DNA of 4,814 nucleotides from a virus (IMGVR_UViG_2778261560_000010), one strand, 5' to 3'. Shown: positions 1 to 4,814, counted from the stretch's first letter. The notes: generated by a model from the letters alone, not told the origin. Made by a program: numbers and translations.

Positions 1-561
1 ATGCTGATTGGCTATATACGCGTATCAACAAATGACCAGAACACAGGTTTACAAAGAAATGCGCTGGAATGTGCAGGATGTGAGCTGATTTTTGAAGATA
101 AAATGAGCGGAAAAACAACGCAGCGGCCGGGACTGAAGCGGGCACTGAAGAAACTAAAACCCGGTGACACGCTGATGGTCTGGAAACTGGACAGGCTGGG
201 GCGCAGTATGCGCCACCTTGTTGCGCTGACAGATGAATTACAGCAACAGGGGATAAATTTTCGTAGTCTTACTGACAACATTGATACGTCAACCCCCATG
301 GGGCGCTTCTTTTTTCACATAATGGGTGCGCTGGCAGAAATGGAGCGTGAATTGATTGTCGAACGGACACGGGCTGGTCTTGCAGCTGCCCGTGAAAGGG
401 GACGAACCGGCGGCAGACCCCGCCGTCTCACGCAGGAACAATACGAGCAGGTCGGGCGTTTACTGGCCGGGGGTGTCAGCCGAAGACAGGTGGCACTTAT
501 TTTTGATATCGGCCTTTCAACCCTTTATCGTTATTATCCTGCGAGCGTTTCGGAAAAATAA
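1..561 (+). CDS. gin: Serine DNA invertase of the Gin/Cin/Pin/Hin family (N-terminal resolvase catalytic domain, C-terminal helix-turn-helix)
   Basis: 186-aa ORF beginning MLIGYIRVSTNDQ, with the conserved catalytic serine at residue 9 (codon 25-27) in the YxRVST(N/D)xQ motif. LDRLGRS and GRFFFH(I/V)MGALAEMERELI blocks and a C-terminal HTH segment (RRQVALIFDIGLSTLYR) closely resemble my recollection of Mu Gin and Salmonella Hin. TAA stop at 559-561. The gin symbol is chosen because com/mom lie downstream, as in Mu. Confidence 0.9.
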   Translation: MLIGYIRVSTNDQNTGLQRNALECAGCELIFEDKMSGKTTQRPGLKRALKKLKPGDTLMVWKLDRLGRSMRHLVALTDELQQQGINFRSLTDNIDTSTPMGRFFFHIMGALAEMERELIVERTRAGLAAARERGRTGGRPRRLTQEQYEQVGRLLAGGVSRRQVALIFDIGLSTLYRYYPASVSEK

Positions 562-651
562 GACGCTCCCTTTGTTGGGCCTTTACTGAATTAACGCAAA
601 ATGGCGTTTATCGGTCTGTGGATATGATAATTCTGTTTATTCAGGAACAGG

Positions 652-2709
652 ATGAATATTATGACGTCCAAATGGGTTCAACTATCATCAATGCCCGGAA
701 ACTTTACCGTTAAAGTTTCCGGTGGTACAGCGGCATTTCTTGAGGCTCCCTTTCCTCCGGCTGAAACGAAAGGAGGAATGACATTTGCTGACTGTCTCAT
801 CAGTTTTAATACACGGGATTGCCTGTGGGTAAGGCCAGTATCCGGTGATCCGAACGTGGAAATTACCGGAGCGGGTATTGGTGCTGTCATTCCGTTAAGT
901 GCTGATGTTGCCGGTACTACTGAACCGTCAGACTGGGATAATGCTGAAACACATACCCGTCCGGCAGGAAATGAAACGGCTTCCAGCTCCCCTTCCTGGT
1001 ATTACGTGATTGTTATAGCCGGTCAGTCCAATGCTTCATCTTATGGTGAAGGGTTGCCCCTGCCGGATTCTTATGATCGTCCTGATCCACGTATTATGCA
1101 GCTGGCACGCAGGAATACACAAACCCCCGGAGGTATTCCCTGCAAATACAATGAAATCATTCCAGCAGATCACTGCCTTCATGATGTTCAGAATATGAGT
1201 CTGCTGAACCATCCAAAAGCAGACCTGAAAAAAGGGCAGTATGGTTGTGTGGGTCAGGGACTTCATATTGCGAAAAAAGTATTACCGGTGATTCCTGCTG
1301 ATGCCGGGATTTTACTGGTTCCCTGTGCCCGTGGCGGCTCTGCTTTTACAACCGGCGCAGTTGGCTCATTCGATCCGGCAAGTGGTGCAGCCGAGGCGTC
1401 ACTACGCTGGGGAGTGGATACCCCACTGTATCAGGATCTTGTCAGTCGAACGAAAGCGGCACTTGAGGCGAATCCAAAGAATGTGCTGTTATCTGTCGTA
1501 TGGATTCAGGGGGAAGGAGACCTTAAAGCGACCCCGGCCCAGCATGGTGCCCAGTTTACTGCGATGGTGAAAAAATTCCGTGCGGATCTTGGTGCTTTCT
1601 CCGGTCAGTGTATTGGTGGTTCATCAGACAGTGTGCCGTGGTTATGTGGTGACACAACCTATGACTGGAAAGAGAAGAACCCGGCGGCATATGAAACCAT
1701 TTATAGCGGATATAAAAACCGGGCTTCCGAGAACATTCACTTTGTTCCACTGATGCACGATGAGTTCGGTAATAAAACCGCGACCAACCTGCCGGAGCAC
1801 GACCCGGATATCGCTTCTGCCGGGTATTATGGTGCGGAATCACGGGGAGATGGCAACTGGACAACAGCATCCAGGGCAACCCATTTTAGCTCCTGGGCGC
1901 GCCGTTTTCTGGTCTCAGATCGTTTTGCATCAGCAATTCTTAAATATGCAGGTCTGACCTCTGCATTTATTGCCGGTGTGGCCCCTGATGGTGAAGCTCT
2001 GCCTCAGCCCGCGCCGGGTGGAAAACCGGAAGCGCCGACAGGTAGTCAGCCAGGAAGCAGTGAGTCCCCCCAGCCGACATCCCCGTCACTCCGTACGCTG
2101 CTTTCACTTAAAGCATCAGCAGGAGAAGCCCCGGCTCAGGGATGGAAAATTACAGATGGTACAATCCAGCTGACGGACGAAGGTAAAGCGCTGACCGTAT
2201 CCAAACAAAGCGGAAAAACCTGGTCACTTACCCATGCGACCAGTGCTGCCGGAGAACTGTTGCAGCATGGTGGTCAGTTGACCTGTAAATTCCGTCTGTC
2301 AGGTGAAGTAAAAGAAGGCCAGTTTGCTCTGGGTATTTACCTCCACACCGATACGGTCCCGGAAGGTGTAACCATGAGTGGTACAGGCACACCGTTCCTG
2401 ATGGCGTATTATCTCCAGACAACAGGCGGCCAGTTAAATCTGATGCACCATAAAACAGGGGGGAATACGAAACTGGGATCATTTGGAGCCTACAATAACC
2501 AGTGGCATACACTTGTCCTGAAGTTTACTGCGGGAAGTGCCCAGGTAACGCCTGTGCTGGATGGCACTCCGGGCCAGGCATTCCAGATGGTGAAAGATGC
2601 ACTTTCCCCTGCCAAAGATACGCTGACACTGACAGATGTCACCAAAGGGGCAACTTATGGCGTGTCTTTTGAGAGCGTTGTCCTTGAGGTTAATACCCCT
2701 GCGGCATAA
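652..2709 (+). CDS. Multidomain carbohydrate esterase: N-terminal ~115-aa domain, central SGNH/sialate-O-acetylesterase-like domain, Pro-rich linker, C-terminal lectin/LamG-like beta-sandwich domain; NanS-p-like prophage cargo protein
   Basis: Long 685-aa ORF with an AGGA Shine-Dalgarno at 643-646, 5 nt before the ATG at 652 (alternative in-frame ATG at 661). SGNH block I VIVIAGQSNASSYGEG, putative nucleophile Ser126 at codon 1027-1029. Further SGNH-like blocks PCARGGSAF and VVWIQGEGD. Low-complexity Pro/Ser linker PQPAPGGKPEAPTGSQPGSSESPQPTSPS around 1990-2090. The C-terminal ~200 aa is rich in beta-strand-type residues (NQWHTLVLKF). Assignment is motif-based only. Confidence 0.75.
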   Translation: MNIMTSKWVQLSSMPGNFTVKVSGGTAAFLEAPFPPAETKGGMTFADCLISFNTRDCLWVRPVSGDPNVEITGAGIGAVIPLSADVAGTTEPSDWDNAETHTRPAGNETASSSPSWYYVIVIAGQSNASSYGEGLPLPDSYDRPDPRIMQLARRNTQTPGGIPCKYNEIIPADHCLHDVQNMSLLNHPKADLKKGQYGCVGQGLHIAKKVLPVIPADAGILLVPCARGGSAFTTGAVGSFDPASGAAEASLRWGVDTPLYQDLVSRTKAALEANPKNVLLSVVWIQGEGDLKATPAQHGAQFTAMVKKFRADLGAFSGQCIGGSSDSVPWLCGDTTYDWKEKNPAAYETIYSGYKNRASENIHFVPLMHDEFGNKTATNLPEHDPDIASAGYYGAESRGDGNWTTASRATHFSSWARRFLVSDRFASAILKYAGLTSAFIAGVAPDGEALPQPAPGGKPEAPTGSQPGSSESPQPTSPSLRTLLSLKASAGEAPAQGWKITDGTIQLTDEGKALTVSKQSGKTWSLTHATSAAGELLQHGGQLTCKFRLSGEVKEGQFALGIYLHTDTVPEGVTMSGTGTPFLMAYYLQTTGGQLNLMHHKTGGNTKLGSFGAYNNQWHTLVLKFTAGSAQVTPVLDGTPGQAFQMVKDALSPAKDTLTLTDVTKGATYGVSFESVVLEVNTPAA

Positions 2710-2766
2710 TCGTGACGGCCGGGAATTTATCCGGCTGTAACATCAGTTAATAAGAGTGAGGCTTAT

Positions 2767-2946
2767 ATGACATATATAAACGTCTGCCTGCTGTATTTCT
2801 GCACGGTGGTTTGTTGTCTGTTGCTTGTCAGCGGTGGTTATAAAATTATTCGCAATTATTTTCGAAATAAAATTGATGCAGCTGCCGAGGAAAAGATAAA
2901 AAGCGGTGCTGTAATGCCGCAGCCGAAAGACTCCGGTCAGATTTAA
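2767..2946 (+). CDS. Small hydrophobic (single-pass membrane?) protein, 59 aa, unknown function; absent from the supplied ORF track
   Basis: ATG at 2767 preceded by GTGAGG (2756-2761) with a 5-nt spacer; TAA at 2944-2946. My translation: MTYINVCLLYFCTVVCCLLLVSGGYKIIRNYFRNKIDAAAEEKIKSGAVMPQPKDSGQI, i.e. an N-terminal hydrophobic Cys-rich helix followed by a charged tail. Sits 57 nt after the esterase stop and 35 nt before the next ORF, on the same strand. Confidence 0.4.
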   Translation: MTYINVCLLYFCTVVCCLLLVSGGYKIIRNYFRNKIDAAAEEKIKSGAVMPQPKDSGQI

Positions 2947-2981
2947 TTTTTTGTGAACCAGAAAAGGAAAGGAGAATATTC

Positions 2982-3227
2982 ATGCCAGAGATTAAAGGCA
3001 CGGTTACTGAAGAGCTTGTCAAACAGGCACTTTATTCTGAAGAAGTGAACCGCGTGCTGAAGGCGCAGGTTCGCAAGGATTTTGAGGCACAAATCGACGC
3101 ATATGTTGATGAAGTGCTGGCCCGAATGGTTGGTCGTTCTCCGGCTGAAAACAGCACGGAAAATGAGCCTCAACCCGTAGAGCAACCAGAGCCGGTTCAG
3201 CCCGGAACTGACGGTACTATGATGTAA
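2982..3227 (+). CDS. Hypothetical small acidic protein, 81 aa (helical N-terminal half, Pro/Glu-rich tail)
   Basis: Strong RBS AAGGAAAGGAGA (GGAG at 2971-2974) 7 nt before the ATG at 2982. Protein-like composition. Followed by a GC-rich hairpin at 3237-3256. The antisense ORF 2943..3314 looks like low-complexity junk by comparison. Confidence 0.55.
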   Translation: MPEIKGTVTEELVKQALYSEEVNRVLKAQVRKDFEAQIDAYVDEVLARMVGRSPAENSTENEPQPVEQPEPVQPGTDGTMM

Positions 3228-3236
3228 CAATACCGA

Positions 3237-3267
3237 CCGGCAGGTTTCCCTGCCGGGTGAATTTGTT
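3237..3267. terminator. Candidate bidirectional intrinsic terminator between convergent small ORFs
   Basis: Perfect 8-bp GC-rich inverted repeat CCGGCAGG (3237-3244), loop TTTC, CCTGCCGG (3249-3256), followed on the + strand by GTGAATTTGTT. Lies between the stop of the + strand ORF (3227) and the stop of the minus-strand ORF (3266). The U-tract is imperfect. Confidence 0.35.
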
Positions 3268-3436
3268 AATGCACGTTTTGTGTATTTTCCCTCCGGGGAG
3301 AACAGGCAGGACATATCAGCATCCTGAAACAGGAAGCATTTTTTGGTTTGTATGTCTTGCCATTTTGAGATCGAGAACGGCGATAGATGAGCTGTAAGGG
3401 AGTCTTACAGGCAGGGCAAACAGGCTCTTTATCCAT
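3266..3436 (-). CDS. Putative small zinc-ribbon protein, 56 aa (two CPAC motifs), unknown function
   Basis: Minus-strand ORF; I place the start at the ATG at 3434-3436 because it has a perfect AAGGAG Shine-Dalgarno 9 nt upstream on the minus strand (revcomp of 3446-3451). The track's 64-aa version begins at an upstream ATG (3460) lacking an SD. Translation MDKEPVCPACKTPLQLIYRRSRSQNGKTYKPKNASCFRMLICPACSPRRENTQNVH contains CxxC...CxxC. Stop at 3266-3268. Confidence 0.35.
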   Translation of the reverse strand: MDKEPVCPACKTPLQLIYRRSRSQNGKTYKPKNASCFRMLICPACSPRRENTQNVH

Positions 3437-3512
3437 GATAAAGATCTCCTTTTTATGCATCTCTGCTTTACAGGAGACCGGGGAATATCATAGGATACGC
3501 CACGAGCTCAGA

Positions 3513-3672
3513 GTGAAGCATTGATGCTGTTTTTTACAGATTGACCCAGAATAGTTCGCGCTATCTGAGTCGCCATTTATGTAGTCCCGAAGTAAAGCAT
3601 TGATGCAAACTTGTCTAAATCGGCCCAGCATAGTTCCAGCTATGCTGGGTCTCCCTTTTATGTAGTATCCTG
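3513..3672. repeat. Two tandem imperfect direct repeats of ~79-81 bp (roughly 70% identical by eye)
   Basis: Unit A 3513-3591 and unit B 3592-3672 share GT(G/A)AAGCATTGATGC, a CCCAG.ATAGTTC..GCTAT core and TTTATGTAGT. Unit B carries a perfect 10-bp inverted repeat CCCAGCATAG (3624-3633), loop TTCCAG, CTATGCTGGG (3640-3649), followed by TCTCCCTTTTAT; the unit A copy is degenerate. Both units contain the small dyad GCAT-TG-ATGC. Confidence 0.55.
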
Positions 3673-3699
3673 TTGATTTGAAACATACTACATATACGC

Positions 3700-3922
3700 G
3701 CGATCCTACCTTCACTGGATAAAAAGTCAATAAAATGATCATTTTATGATCGTTTTCACCACCTAAGTCTTCGTTTTCTTTAAGTAAATAATCACCGCCC
3801 TGAATCATTGTTGATGACTTTTAAATCTATTTGTTGTATCAATTAAACAAATCGAATCGATCGTTTTTGTCGATCGATTGCATGAAAAAGGCATCAACAA
3901 CAAAGCAGGAGGTTATGCGGCC
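3700..3922 (+). promoter_or_regulatory. com-mom upstream regulatory region with clustered Dam (GATC) sites; candidate methylation-sensitive promoter region
   Basis: Five GATC sites in ~180 bp, at 3702, 3737, 3748, 3859 and 3872, against roughly ten in the 2-kb esterase gene. Two lie in direct repeats AATGATCATTTT / TATGATCGTTTT (3734-3756); two lie in a perfect 9-bp inverted repeat AATCGATCG (3855-3863), 7-nt spacer, CGATCGATT (3871-3879). Candidate weak sigma70 hexamers are ATGACT (3814-3819) / 17 bp / TATCAA (3837-3842), or alternatively a -10 like TAAATAAT (3785-3792) with a poor -35. com RBS CAGGAGG at 3906-3912. Confidence 0.5.
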
Positions 3923-4123
3923 ATGTATCGAAACATACGGTGCCGACACTGCAATAAGCTACTGGCACGGGCCAGTTTCAGTTATCTGGAAGTAAAATGT
4001 CCGCGCTGTAAAACCCTCAATCAAATCACATCTCCGAGCGCCACAGAGCACCCCACATACACAAGGAAATCCTGTCGTGGGGAACAAAAAGCAAGTTACA
4101 TCCCGTATCATCAGCACGCCTGA
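3923..4123 (+). CDS. com: Com-like zinc-finger translational activator of mom
   Basis: 66-aa ORF from the ATG at 3923, with CAGGAGG 10 nt upstream. [31 protein letters not shown] has the C-x2-C-x15-C-x2-C spacing and resembles Mu Com as I recall it (MKSIRCKNCNKLL...IRCPRCK). The track's 81-aa version starts at a TTG at 3878 inside the GATC palindrome, which I consider an artefact. Overlaps the next ORF by 47 nt. Confidence 0.8.
4051..4082 (+). promoter_or_regulatory. Candidate mRNA stem-loop sequestering the mom Shine-Dalgarno and GTG start (putative target of Com-dependent translational activation)
   Basis: CCCCAC (4051-4056) is the exact reverse complement of GTGGGG (4077-4082), which contains the mom GTG start. 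The 20-nt intervening sequence carries the SD-like AAGGAAA (4063-4069). Consistent with the known Mu mechanism in which Com binding unmasks the mom translation start. Confidence 0.4.
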
Positions 4124-4814
4124 ACTTATTCGCTATAACGACAATATCGTTGGTTATGGCTCCCGTGAGTTACGGGTTGAGACAATAAGTTGCTGGCTGG
4201 CCCGACTGGTCATCGTCAATAAACATTACAGCCACCGTTTCGTAAATAATTCATACCTTCATCTGGGCATATTTTCAGAACGGGAACTTGTTGGCGTAAT
4301 GCAATGGGGTTACGCCCTTAACCCAAACAGTGGTGCACGCGTCGTAACGGGTACGCAGAACCGAGAATATATGGAGCTGAACCGGCTATGGCTGCATGAC
4401 TGTATGCCGAGAAACTCCGAATCAAGGGCGATCAGTTACGCGCTCAAGCTAATCAGGCAGCTTTATCCGCAGGTGCAGTGGGTTCAGTCGTTTGCAGATG
4501 AGCGTTGTGGCTGTCTTGGTGTCGTGTATCAGGCAAGCAATTTTGATTATGTAGGCAGCCATGAATCAACATTCTATGAACTTGATGGCGAGTGGTATCA
4601 CGAGATTTGCAGGAATGCCATTAAACGAGGCGGACAACGAGGTGAACATCTGAGGGCTAATATCGACAGAGCCAGTGTGCATAAGTTCCAACAGTTTCGT
4701 TACATCCGGTTTCTGAACAAGAGGGCCAGAAAACGCCTCAACACAAAGCTATTCAAAGTCCAGCCTTACCCAAAACCACAAACAGTTAAAACTGGTTTGA
4801 AAGAGAGTGAATGA
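4077..4814 (+). CDS. mom: Mom-like DNA modification protein (adenine N6-acetamido/carbamoylmethyl modification enzyme of Mu-like phages)
   Basis: 245-aa [34 protein letters not shown]..., resembling Mu Mom as I recall it. Start is a GTG at 4077, the first possible start after the in-frame stop at 3993-3995, with AAGGAAA 7 nt upstream. Begins inside the 3' end of com, as in Mu. TGA stop at 4812-4814, the last bases of the window. Confidence 0.85.

Follow-up and report, generated by a model that had tools for sequence, protein, structure and literature searches.

The interval between the invertase gene gin and the DNA-modification operon com-mom at the right end of a Mu-like prophage, represented here by a 4,814-nucleotide stretch of viral DNA (IMGVR_UViG_2778261560_000010; hereafter the window), is very probably occupied by an accessory operon of the kind known from lambdoid and Shiga toxin (Stx) phages. 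The operon encodes an esterase of the NanS-p family and two small proteins, DUF1378 and DUF826. We place it, with the same high confidence, at the gin/com junction of the Escherichia coli Sp18 lineage, and regard the esterase's N-terminal domain as the part that is adapted to Mu. The cargo itself is thus a known module in an unreported host phage. Three points look new: a rare beta-barrel of about 75 residues that takes the place of DUF1737 in the esterases of Mu-like phages and appears to be undescribed; a variable slot with a conserved plus-strand terminator downstream of it; and hybrids between Mu-like and lambdoid DNA via the shared cassette.

A nanS-p cassette between gin and com

Near-identical copies of the window (98.6%) terminate complete Mu-type prophages in E. 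coli chromosomes, where portal, head, sheath, tape-measure, baseplate and invertible tail-fibre genes lie upstream. From the end of gin (1-561) to com (3923) the window measures 3,361 bp, compared with 94 bp between the gin stop codon and the com ATG in phage Mu (AF083977), and the large cargo that a first-pass annotation had described here from the sequence alone is therefore present. Its assignments of gin and mom are also borne out, by matches to the Pfam families Resolvase and Mom (Table 1); Gin, Com and Mom are 75%, 45% and 79% identical to their Mu counterparts at the amino acid level. Nucleotide similarity to Mu is confined to 2-528 and 4146-4774, and the last approximately 11 codons of gin are unlike those of Mu gin, which puts the left junction at about 529-561. 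The window further resembles the right end (beta region) of Mu, D108 and SfMu in the overlap of com with mom (47 nt), in a cluster of GATC sites upstream of com and in the position of the phage end after mom. Besides the length of the interval, it differs in that the GATC cluster lies clear of the end of gin, and in its control region, in which no TTAT-N6-ATAA C-box was seen.

Table 1. Features of the window, with positions counted from its first nucleotide
Feature	Position	Strand	Evidence and remarks
gin, G-segment serine invertase, left backbone flank	1..561	+	Pfam Resolvase 4.9e-51 and HTH_7
gin-esterase spacer	562..660	+	GATAAT at 626-631; AGGA ribosome-binding site at 643-646
NanS-p-type sialate O-acetylesterase, 685 amino acids	652..2709	+	Pfam SASA 1.6e-13, DUF6645 6.3e-26; phrog_143 1.5e-273
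DUF1378 small protein, 59 amino acids, hydrophobic N-terminal segment	2767..2946	+	Pfam DUF1378 9.2e-24; phrog_494
DUF826 small protein, 81 amino acids	2982..3227	+	Pfam DUF826 3.1e-15; phrog_311
GC-rich terminator-like hairpin with weak T-tract, directly after the DUF826 stop	3237..3256	+	-18.9 kcal/mol, z -3.3; inverted repeat
Putative orphan zinc-ribbon open reading frame (CPAC...CPAC), 64 amino acids, 'type A' slot content	3266..3460	-	
Open reading frame of 106 amino acids, probably not a gene; ECs_4996 in Sakai	3488..3808	-	N-terminal part of a 'frameshifted hypothetical' of the Prokaryotic Genome Annotation Pipeline; phrog_26524 (unknown function) sole match
Two copies of an approximately 80-bp unit, 74% identical	3512-3590, 3591-3670	+	Direct-repeat search; none reported by Tandem Repeats Finder
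AT-rich com-mom control region (backbone)	3690..3922	+	GATC cluster, dyad, com ribosome-binding site at 3908-3913
com, zinc-ribbon translational activator of mom	3923..4123	+	Pfam Zn_ribbon_Com 2e-12; 45% identity to Mu Com
mom, DNA adenine modification enzyme	4077..4814	+	Pfam Mom 3.9e-77; 79% identity to Mu Mom

The first-pass annotation had correctly located a large esterase gene and two small plus-strand open reading frames (ORFs) in the interval, and had taken the small components to be unrecognizable and the module to be possibly undescribed. For the larger part of the interval these last two views do not hold: the two small plus-strand ORFs belong to the Pfam families DUF1378 and DUF826, the esterase is of the NanS-p family and the trio is a standard lambdoid block between Q/stx and the holin gene. 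The three genes lie on one strand with gaps of 57 and 35 nt, and so form an apparent operon. In a lambdoid prophage of EDL933 the trio recurs, its order unchanged, between the genes for the Q antiterminator and the holin, with DUF1378 right after the esterase and DUF826 before the holin. A survey of Stx phages likewise has ORFs for DUF826 and DUF1378 in the stretch from nanS-p to S (PMC10462455), and the esterase occurs by itself downstream of stx1 in Stx1 phages, and also in phage 434.

The esterase is built from a beta-barrel (residues ~8-81), a linker to ~107, a SASA/SGNH catalytic domain (108-432), a Pro/Ser linker and a DUF6645 jelly-roll (481-685). Two solved structures are matched: the E. 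coli esterase NanS/YjhS by residues 108-432 (PDB 3PT5; 3.6e-110), and a phage NanS-p, in its C-terminal domain, by residues 481-682 (PDB 6YP6; 1.2e-42). In the esterase alignment, conservation extends to the SGNH-type motifs (GQSN, RGGS and QGE) and to the block V histidine. Translation probably begins at the ATG at 661 (MTSKW...). The protein thus shares with lambdoid and Stx NanS-p enzymes (933W L0105/z1466; phi24B vb_24B_21/gp84) the catalytic domain and the lectin-like jelly-roll, the neighbouring DUF1378 and DUF826 genes, and the occurrence of several recombining alleles per genome. It differs from them in having the unrelated beta-barrel and linker instead of DUF1737, and in its location, which is the gin-com interval of a transposable Mu-like myovirus rather than a site downstream of Q/stx and upstream of the holin. 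Control by Q antitermination is therefore impossible for it. A single-sequence AlphaFold prediction of the full-length esterase gave no usable model (predicted local distance difference test (pLDDT) 32). The ATG at 652 (MNIM...) is peculiar to the window allele, and relatives begin at their equivalent of the ATG at 661.

Prophage Sp18 of E. coli O157:H7 Sakai, the lineage's named member, has the same layout, from the invertase ECs_4992 through ECs_4993-4995 and the minus-strand ECs_4996 to com-mom (ECs_4997/4998), with the cargo genes annotated merely as hypothetical proteins. Packaging of Sp18 DNA has been reported (PMC2669165). Sp18 shares with the window the gene order, the esterase's N-terminal domain (97% identity), DUF826, the spacer type and com-mom. 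The window differs in carrying another allele of the catalytic (68%) and C-terminal (40%) domains and of DUF1378 (59%), a second copy of the 80-bp terminator unit and a broken minus-strand ORF. O157 strain 7409, SCU-171, CI5 and M1 share the layout, as does a Mu-like phage that has integrated into Stx phages. Of 5,426 complete E. coli genomes, 225 (about 4%) contain com-mom at >=95% identity. A Mom profile recovered 80 loci from IMG/VR, from which we counted those whose sequence extends 4.5 kb or more upstream of mom. The esterase is present in all 18 loci in which Mom is >=90% identical to that of the window, with gin-com distances of 3285-3735 bp, and in none of the 40 with Mu-type Mom (69-83% identity), where gin and com are 98-127 bp apart in the 10 loci that have gin. 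The cassette is likewise absent from Mu, D108 and SfMu and from UMNF18-type and A35-type prophages. It is therefore a fixed feature of the Sp18 lineage and absent from the classical Mu group, which divides the answer to whether canonical Mu-like phages carry these genes between gin and com: Sp18 does, and Mu, D108 and SfMu do not.

Individual prophages depart from the common arrangement. The interval of strain 48 (H4, NZ_CP166879.1 2142430-2149705) is about 2.5 kb longer and holds an IS682 (IS66-family) insertion; gin is frameshifted in STEC2017-197 (L002 20001-20491); and the CI5 and M1 prophages (L007, L010) have no gin, the esterase following directly on the tail-fibre assembly gene. The STEC2017-197 prophage also bears a 'tRNA-OTHER' annotation on the minus strand amid its head morphogenesis genes (L002 3845-3924).

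The reviews and surveys of NanS-p that we consulted name only lambdoid, Stx or unspecified non-Stx prophages as carriers. Our literature search, which was not exhaustive, returned no description of a Mu-borne cassette, no paper with both 'nanS-p' and 'Mu-like', and none naming ECs4993, ECs4994 or ECs4996.

The layout had been likened to that of a moron, and in part it is. As in the morons of lambdoid phages (in the sense of Hendrix and Juhala), extra genes lie between two genes that are adjacent in relatives (here Mu, D108, SfMu and other Mu-type prophages), they have the look of one transcription unit that closes in terminator-like hairpins, and their function is accessory and nonessential to the phage. 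The cargo differs from a moron in having no demonstrable promoter of its own and in being fixed across a whole lineage rather than sporadic. Its base composition is also that of its flanks (GC content 0.45-0.58, compared with 0.45-0.54 in gin and mom), and the comparison of GC content that the first-pass annotation had proposed gives no difference. Most of 562-3922 is cargo as described; the last ~95-130 bp (from about 3790/3828 to 3922) belong to the conserved control region of com-mom.

Several points weigh against our interpretation of the interval as a lambdoid-type operon. 'Insertion' is a relative term, and Mu-type phages may equally have lost the cassette; the GC content carries no sign of foreign origin. 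There is no sigma-70-like match in 562-651 and no promoter could be assigned to the operon, which may be expressed in the lysogen or late. Finally, the catalytic domain of the window esterase is only ~63-68% identical to that of any other allele examined, and its activity is a prediction.

The N-terminal domain and the site of esterase action

DUF1737, which the lambdoid copies of the esterase match at 2e-15 to 3e-15, was not recovered at E <= 1 from the esterase of the window, nor from any of three further esterases of Mu-like phages. All four have instead an unrelated N-terminal region of about 105 residues (aligned identity 16-18%). AlphaFold, run on a six-sequence alignment, models residues 8-81 as a beta-barrel (pLDDT 84-91) followed by a disordered linker. 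Fold searches with this model returned generic small barrels only, so no function can be deduced from the fold. The domain is rare: there were 5 matches among 1.84 billion representative proteins, a search of 5.8 billion returned 8, all of them short and belonging to E. coli, Shigella or Salmonella, and the species-representative genomes of GTDB yielded none. Its occurrences are tied to Mu-type phages. All 34 IMG/VR loci with the domain have Mu-type baseplate and tail-fibre genes upstream wherever the flank exists, and a Salmonella relative (27% identity) likewise belongs to a Mu-like prophage, in which gin lies upstream of it. Between gin and the esterase of the Salmonella Mu-like prophage L014 (9426-9910) are two extra small ORFs of 58 and 87 amino acids, neither with a Pfam match.

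The other domains follow a different pattern. Compared with the window esterase, Sp18-type enzymes are 97% identical in the N-terminal domain, 68% in the catalytic domain and 40% in the C-terminal domain; CI5/M1-type enzymes are 57%, 63% and 41% identical; and those of the phage 434/Stx1 type have no related N-terminal domain but are 67-68% identical in the catalytic and 62% in the C-terminal domain (phage 434: 68% and 62%). The N-terminal domain thus tracks the phage backbone, and the remaining domains behave as exchangeable alleles. Recent capture of the window allele from a known E. coli lambdoid prophage was rejected as its source, the nearest lambdoid alleles having at most ~68% nucleotide identity.

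The promoters offer little guidance on when the operon is expressed. The spacer at 562-660 holds no convincing match to a Mu late promoter and no motif common to it and the upstream regions of Sp18 lys/I or Mu Pmom, and the late-promoter motif TTAT-N6-ATAA was not found. Expression may take place in the prophage, by read-through from gin, or late. In Mu, gin is expressed in lysogens.

We hypothesize that the enzyme would strip O-acetyl groups from 5-N-acetyl-9-O-acetylneuraminic acid (Neu5,9Ac2) and mucin sialoglycans, by analogy with tested NanS-p enzymes, for which activity on Neu5,9Ac2 and mucin has been reported with lambdoid alleles (reviewed in PMC8065619). By direct reading, the protein has neither a signal peptide nor another export signal, so its action would have to await phage-induced lysis or take place on the virion. 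The beta-barrel would stand in for DUF1737, the domain through which gp84 of phi24B, itself a NanS-p, is anchored as a capsid decoration protein (bioRxiv 10.64898/2026.04.10.717836); because it occupies the place of that anchor, it would be the portion of the enzyme that is suited to the particle of Mu-type phages or to a partner specific to Mu. Through recombination, the catalytic and C-terminal domains would be swapped with lambdoid alleles, and the terminators at the end of the cassette would keep transcription of the cargo operon from running on into com-mom.

How far the N-terminal domain has to do with the particle separates two narrower readings. According to one, which we judge possible but somewhat short of an even chance, the cassette is a pure lysogenic-conversion moron: it would be expressed from the prophage by read-through from gin or by a weak promoter of its own, the host would gain O-acetylated sialic acids as a carbon source, and the N-terminal domain would have no role in the particle. 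NanS-p enzymes do enable growth on Neu5,9Ac2 (PMC8065619), gin immediately precedes the cassette and shares its strand, terminators bound the cassette, and the up to 10 NanS-p-like places per genome suggest dosage or a benefit to the host. However, no promoter was identified, the absence of an export signal means that release would need lysis, and the strict tie of the N-terminal domain to the phage type is left unexplained.

That tie is what an alternative, which we consider rather unlikely, would account for. The esterase would be a virion component, its beta-barrel docking on the Mu-type head or tail, and the particle would bind or deacetylate mucin or O-acetylated glycans of the host surface. 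The DUF1737 anchor of phi24B gp84 is the precedent, and replacement of exactly this domain according to phage type, while the other domains are shuffled, is what would be expected of a virion adaptor. The esterase gene also has the tail-fibre and invertible-segment genes as neighbours and is on the strand of the late genes, the barrel is succeeded by a disordered linker, and the best, if weak, fold matches in BFVD are small uncharacterized phage proteins. Against this, the placement on the Sp18 virion is a prediction, the fold matches are generic, none of the other Sp18 proteins contains a paralogue of the N-terminal domain that could be a candidate anchor, and no Mu late-promoter motif precedes the esterase.

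The spacer and the com-mom control region

Downstream of the operon, the hairpin that follows DUF826 leads into a slot (window 3257-3480) of variable content. The window and Sp18 hold the zinc-ribbon ORF, which the first-pass annotation had recognized, and other relatives have either two different small ORFs or a single ORF of 97-101 amino acids. Across the loci examined there are at least three unrelated sets of orphan ORFs in this slot (window 3257-3480; L015 9580-10070; L029 9670-10110; L028 9540-10000; L007 6428-6733). For the slot ORFs of the window and its relatives, no family above threshold was found in Pfam, PHROGs, NCBIfam or PADLOC. A defence system was considered and rejected, there being no PADLOC match for any ORF of the interval or for the alternative slot contents. 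Among Sp18-type variants the segment 3228-3500 is conserved at 98.5-100%, and variants of the zinc-ribbon ORF show just 2 substitutions, both synonymous. A mobile or repetitive extragenic palindrome-like element was likewise rejected for 3228-3830, because the segment does not occur outside prophages of this kind and has a median of one place in each genome. An Rfam scan of the window at E <= 1 gave no match.

The tandem repeats that had been described further along are two copies of the ~80-bp unit; they emerge from a direct-repeat search and escape Tandem Repeats Finder. Most relatives have one copy, and 8 of 32 loci have two. In the window, copy 2 contains a perfect 13-bp hairpin with a T-run at 3622-3651, an intrinsic terminator on the plus strand about 400 bp beyond the DUF826 hairpin and the top match of the terminator scan (-23.3 kcal/mol, z -5.8); the hairpin of copy 1 is degenerate. 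At least three alleles of this terminator exist, with different stem sequences and the pairing kept, which speaks for an intrinsic terminator under selection.

The minus-strand ORFs are doubtful as genes. Homologues of 3488-3808 shift frame between relatives, and their variable sites are spread over the three codon positions as 9:9:11, with no third-position bias. On these grounds we regard the ORF as an improbable gene, in both its 106-amino-acid and its 154-amino-acid form.

It is improbable, in our judgement, that the real novelty lies in this spacer (3228-3827), in the shape of a small regulator encoded by the zinc-ribbon ORF, a small RNA with its end at 3622-3651 or a defence or toxin cassette to which the esterase is a mere neighbour: the alternative ORF sets, the compensatory terminator alleles, the conservation of 3228-3500 and promoter-like sites at 3467-3496 (+) and 3730-3703 (-) would favour it, but those sites are no commoner than in shuffled sequence, the database searches found no family, and the long minus-strand ORF lacks a coding signature and varies in frame.

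The AT-rich stretch noted in the first pass is real (GC content 0.357 over 3601-3900) and, on the strength of its motifs and alignment, is best taken as the mom control region, moved away from the end of gin. Five GATC sites fall within 3690-3890 (3702, 3737, 3748, 3859 and 3872), where about 0.8 would be expected. The core at 3828-3881 is nearly invariant across lineages and aligns to the GATC cluster at the 3' end of Mu gin, and homology with CI5 and M1 picks up again at 3828. In Mu, the expression of Mom is under tight control. The two core GATC sites are immediately preceded by a perfect dyad, ATTTGTT-N10-AACAAAT (3829-3852), which is also invariant across lineages and may be a candidate binding site for the late activator of the lineage; it occurs only at com, and not upstream of other late genes in L002. 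In some Sp18-type prophages (L001 10086-11138; L019, L024, L042) com is followed by a gene for a 350-amino-acid C5-cytosine DNA methyltransferase (PHROG 5.5e-86), with no mom. The DNA-modification gene behind com appears to be exchangeable.

Hybrids and the spread of NanS-p

Some contigs join Mu-like to lambdoid DNA within the cassette. In L032 (1-10874) and L027, Mu-type tail genes and an esterase with the Mu-type N-terminal domain are joined to a lambdoid region of DUF1378, DUF826, holin and lysis genes. In L064 (1-7738), lambdoid early genes and a DUF1737 N-terminal domain lead into a catalytic domain of the Mu type, with DUF1378, DUF826 and com-mom. One source genome yielded both L032 and L064, which have roughly reciprocal structures, and L032 terminates in a reversed Mu right end. 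Their sequences suggest that a Mu-like prophage and a lambdoid cassette close to it have undergone an inversion; a chimera formed in assembly is a possible alternative for the joint.

A wider, and on balance unlikely, proposal is that NanS-p proteins in general are modular virion-display enzymes, with constant catalytic and lectin domains and interchangeable N-terminal adaptors for each type of particle: DUF1737 for phi24B-type capsids and the beta-barrel for Mu-type myoviruses. If this were true, Sp18-type phages would bear a mucin- or sialoglycan-directed enzyme on their particles, and recombination within the cassette, of the kind seen in the hybrids L032 and L064, would let unrelated phage families exchange adaptors.

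The benefit ascribed to nanS-p is bacterial use of O-acetylated sialic acids from gut mucus, and work on it has so far been limited to lambdoid prophages. A whole lineage of active Mu-like transposable prophages also carries the cassette and needs to be included in counts of nanS-p and in models of its spread. The shared cassette is, moreover, a stretch of homology between unrelated prophage families, and the hybrid contigs suggest cassette-mediated rearrangement of the genome. Finally, the swap of the N-terminal domain coincides with the domain identified as the capsid anchor of phi24B gp84, and offers a direct way to ask whether NanS-p proteins are generally displayed on virions.

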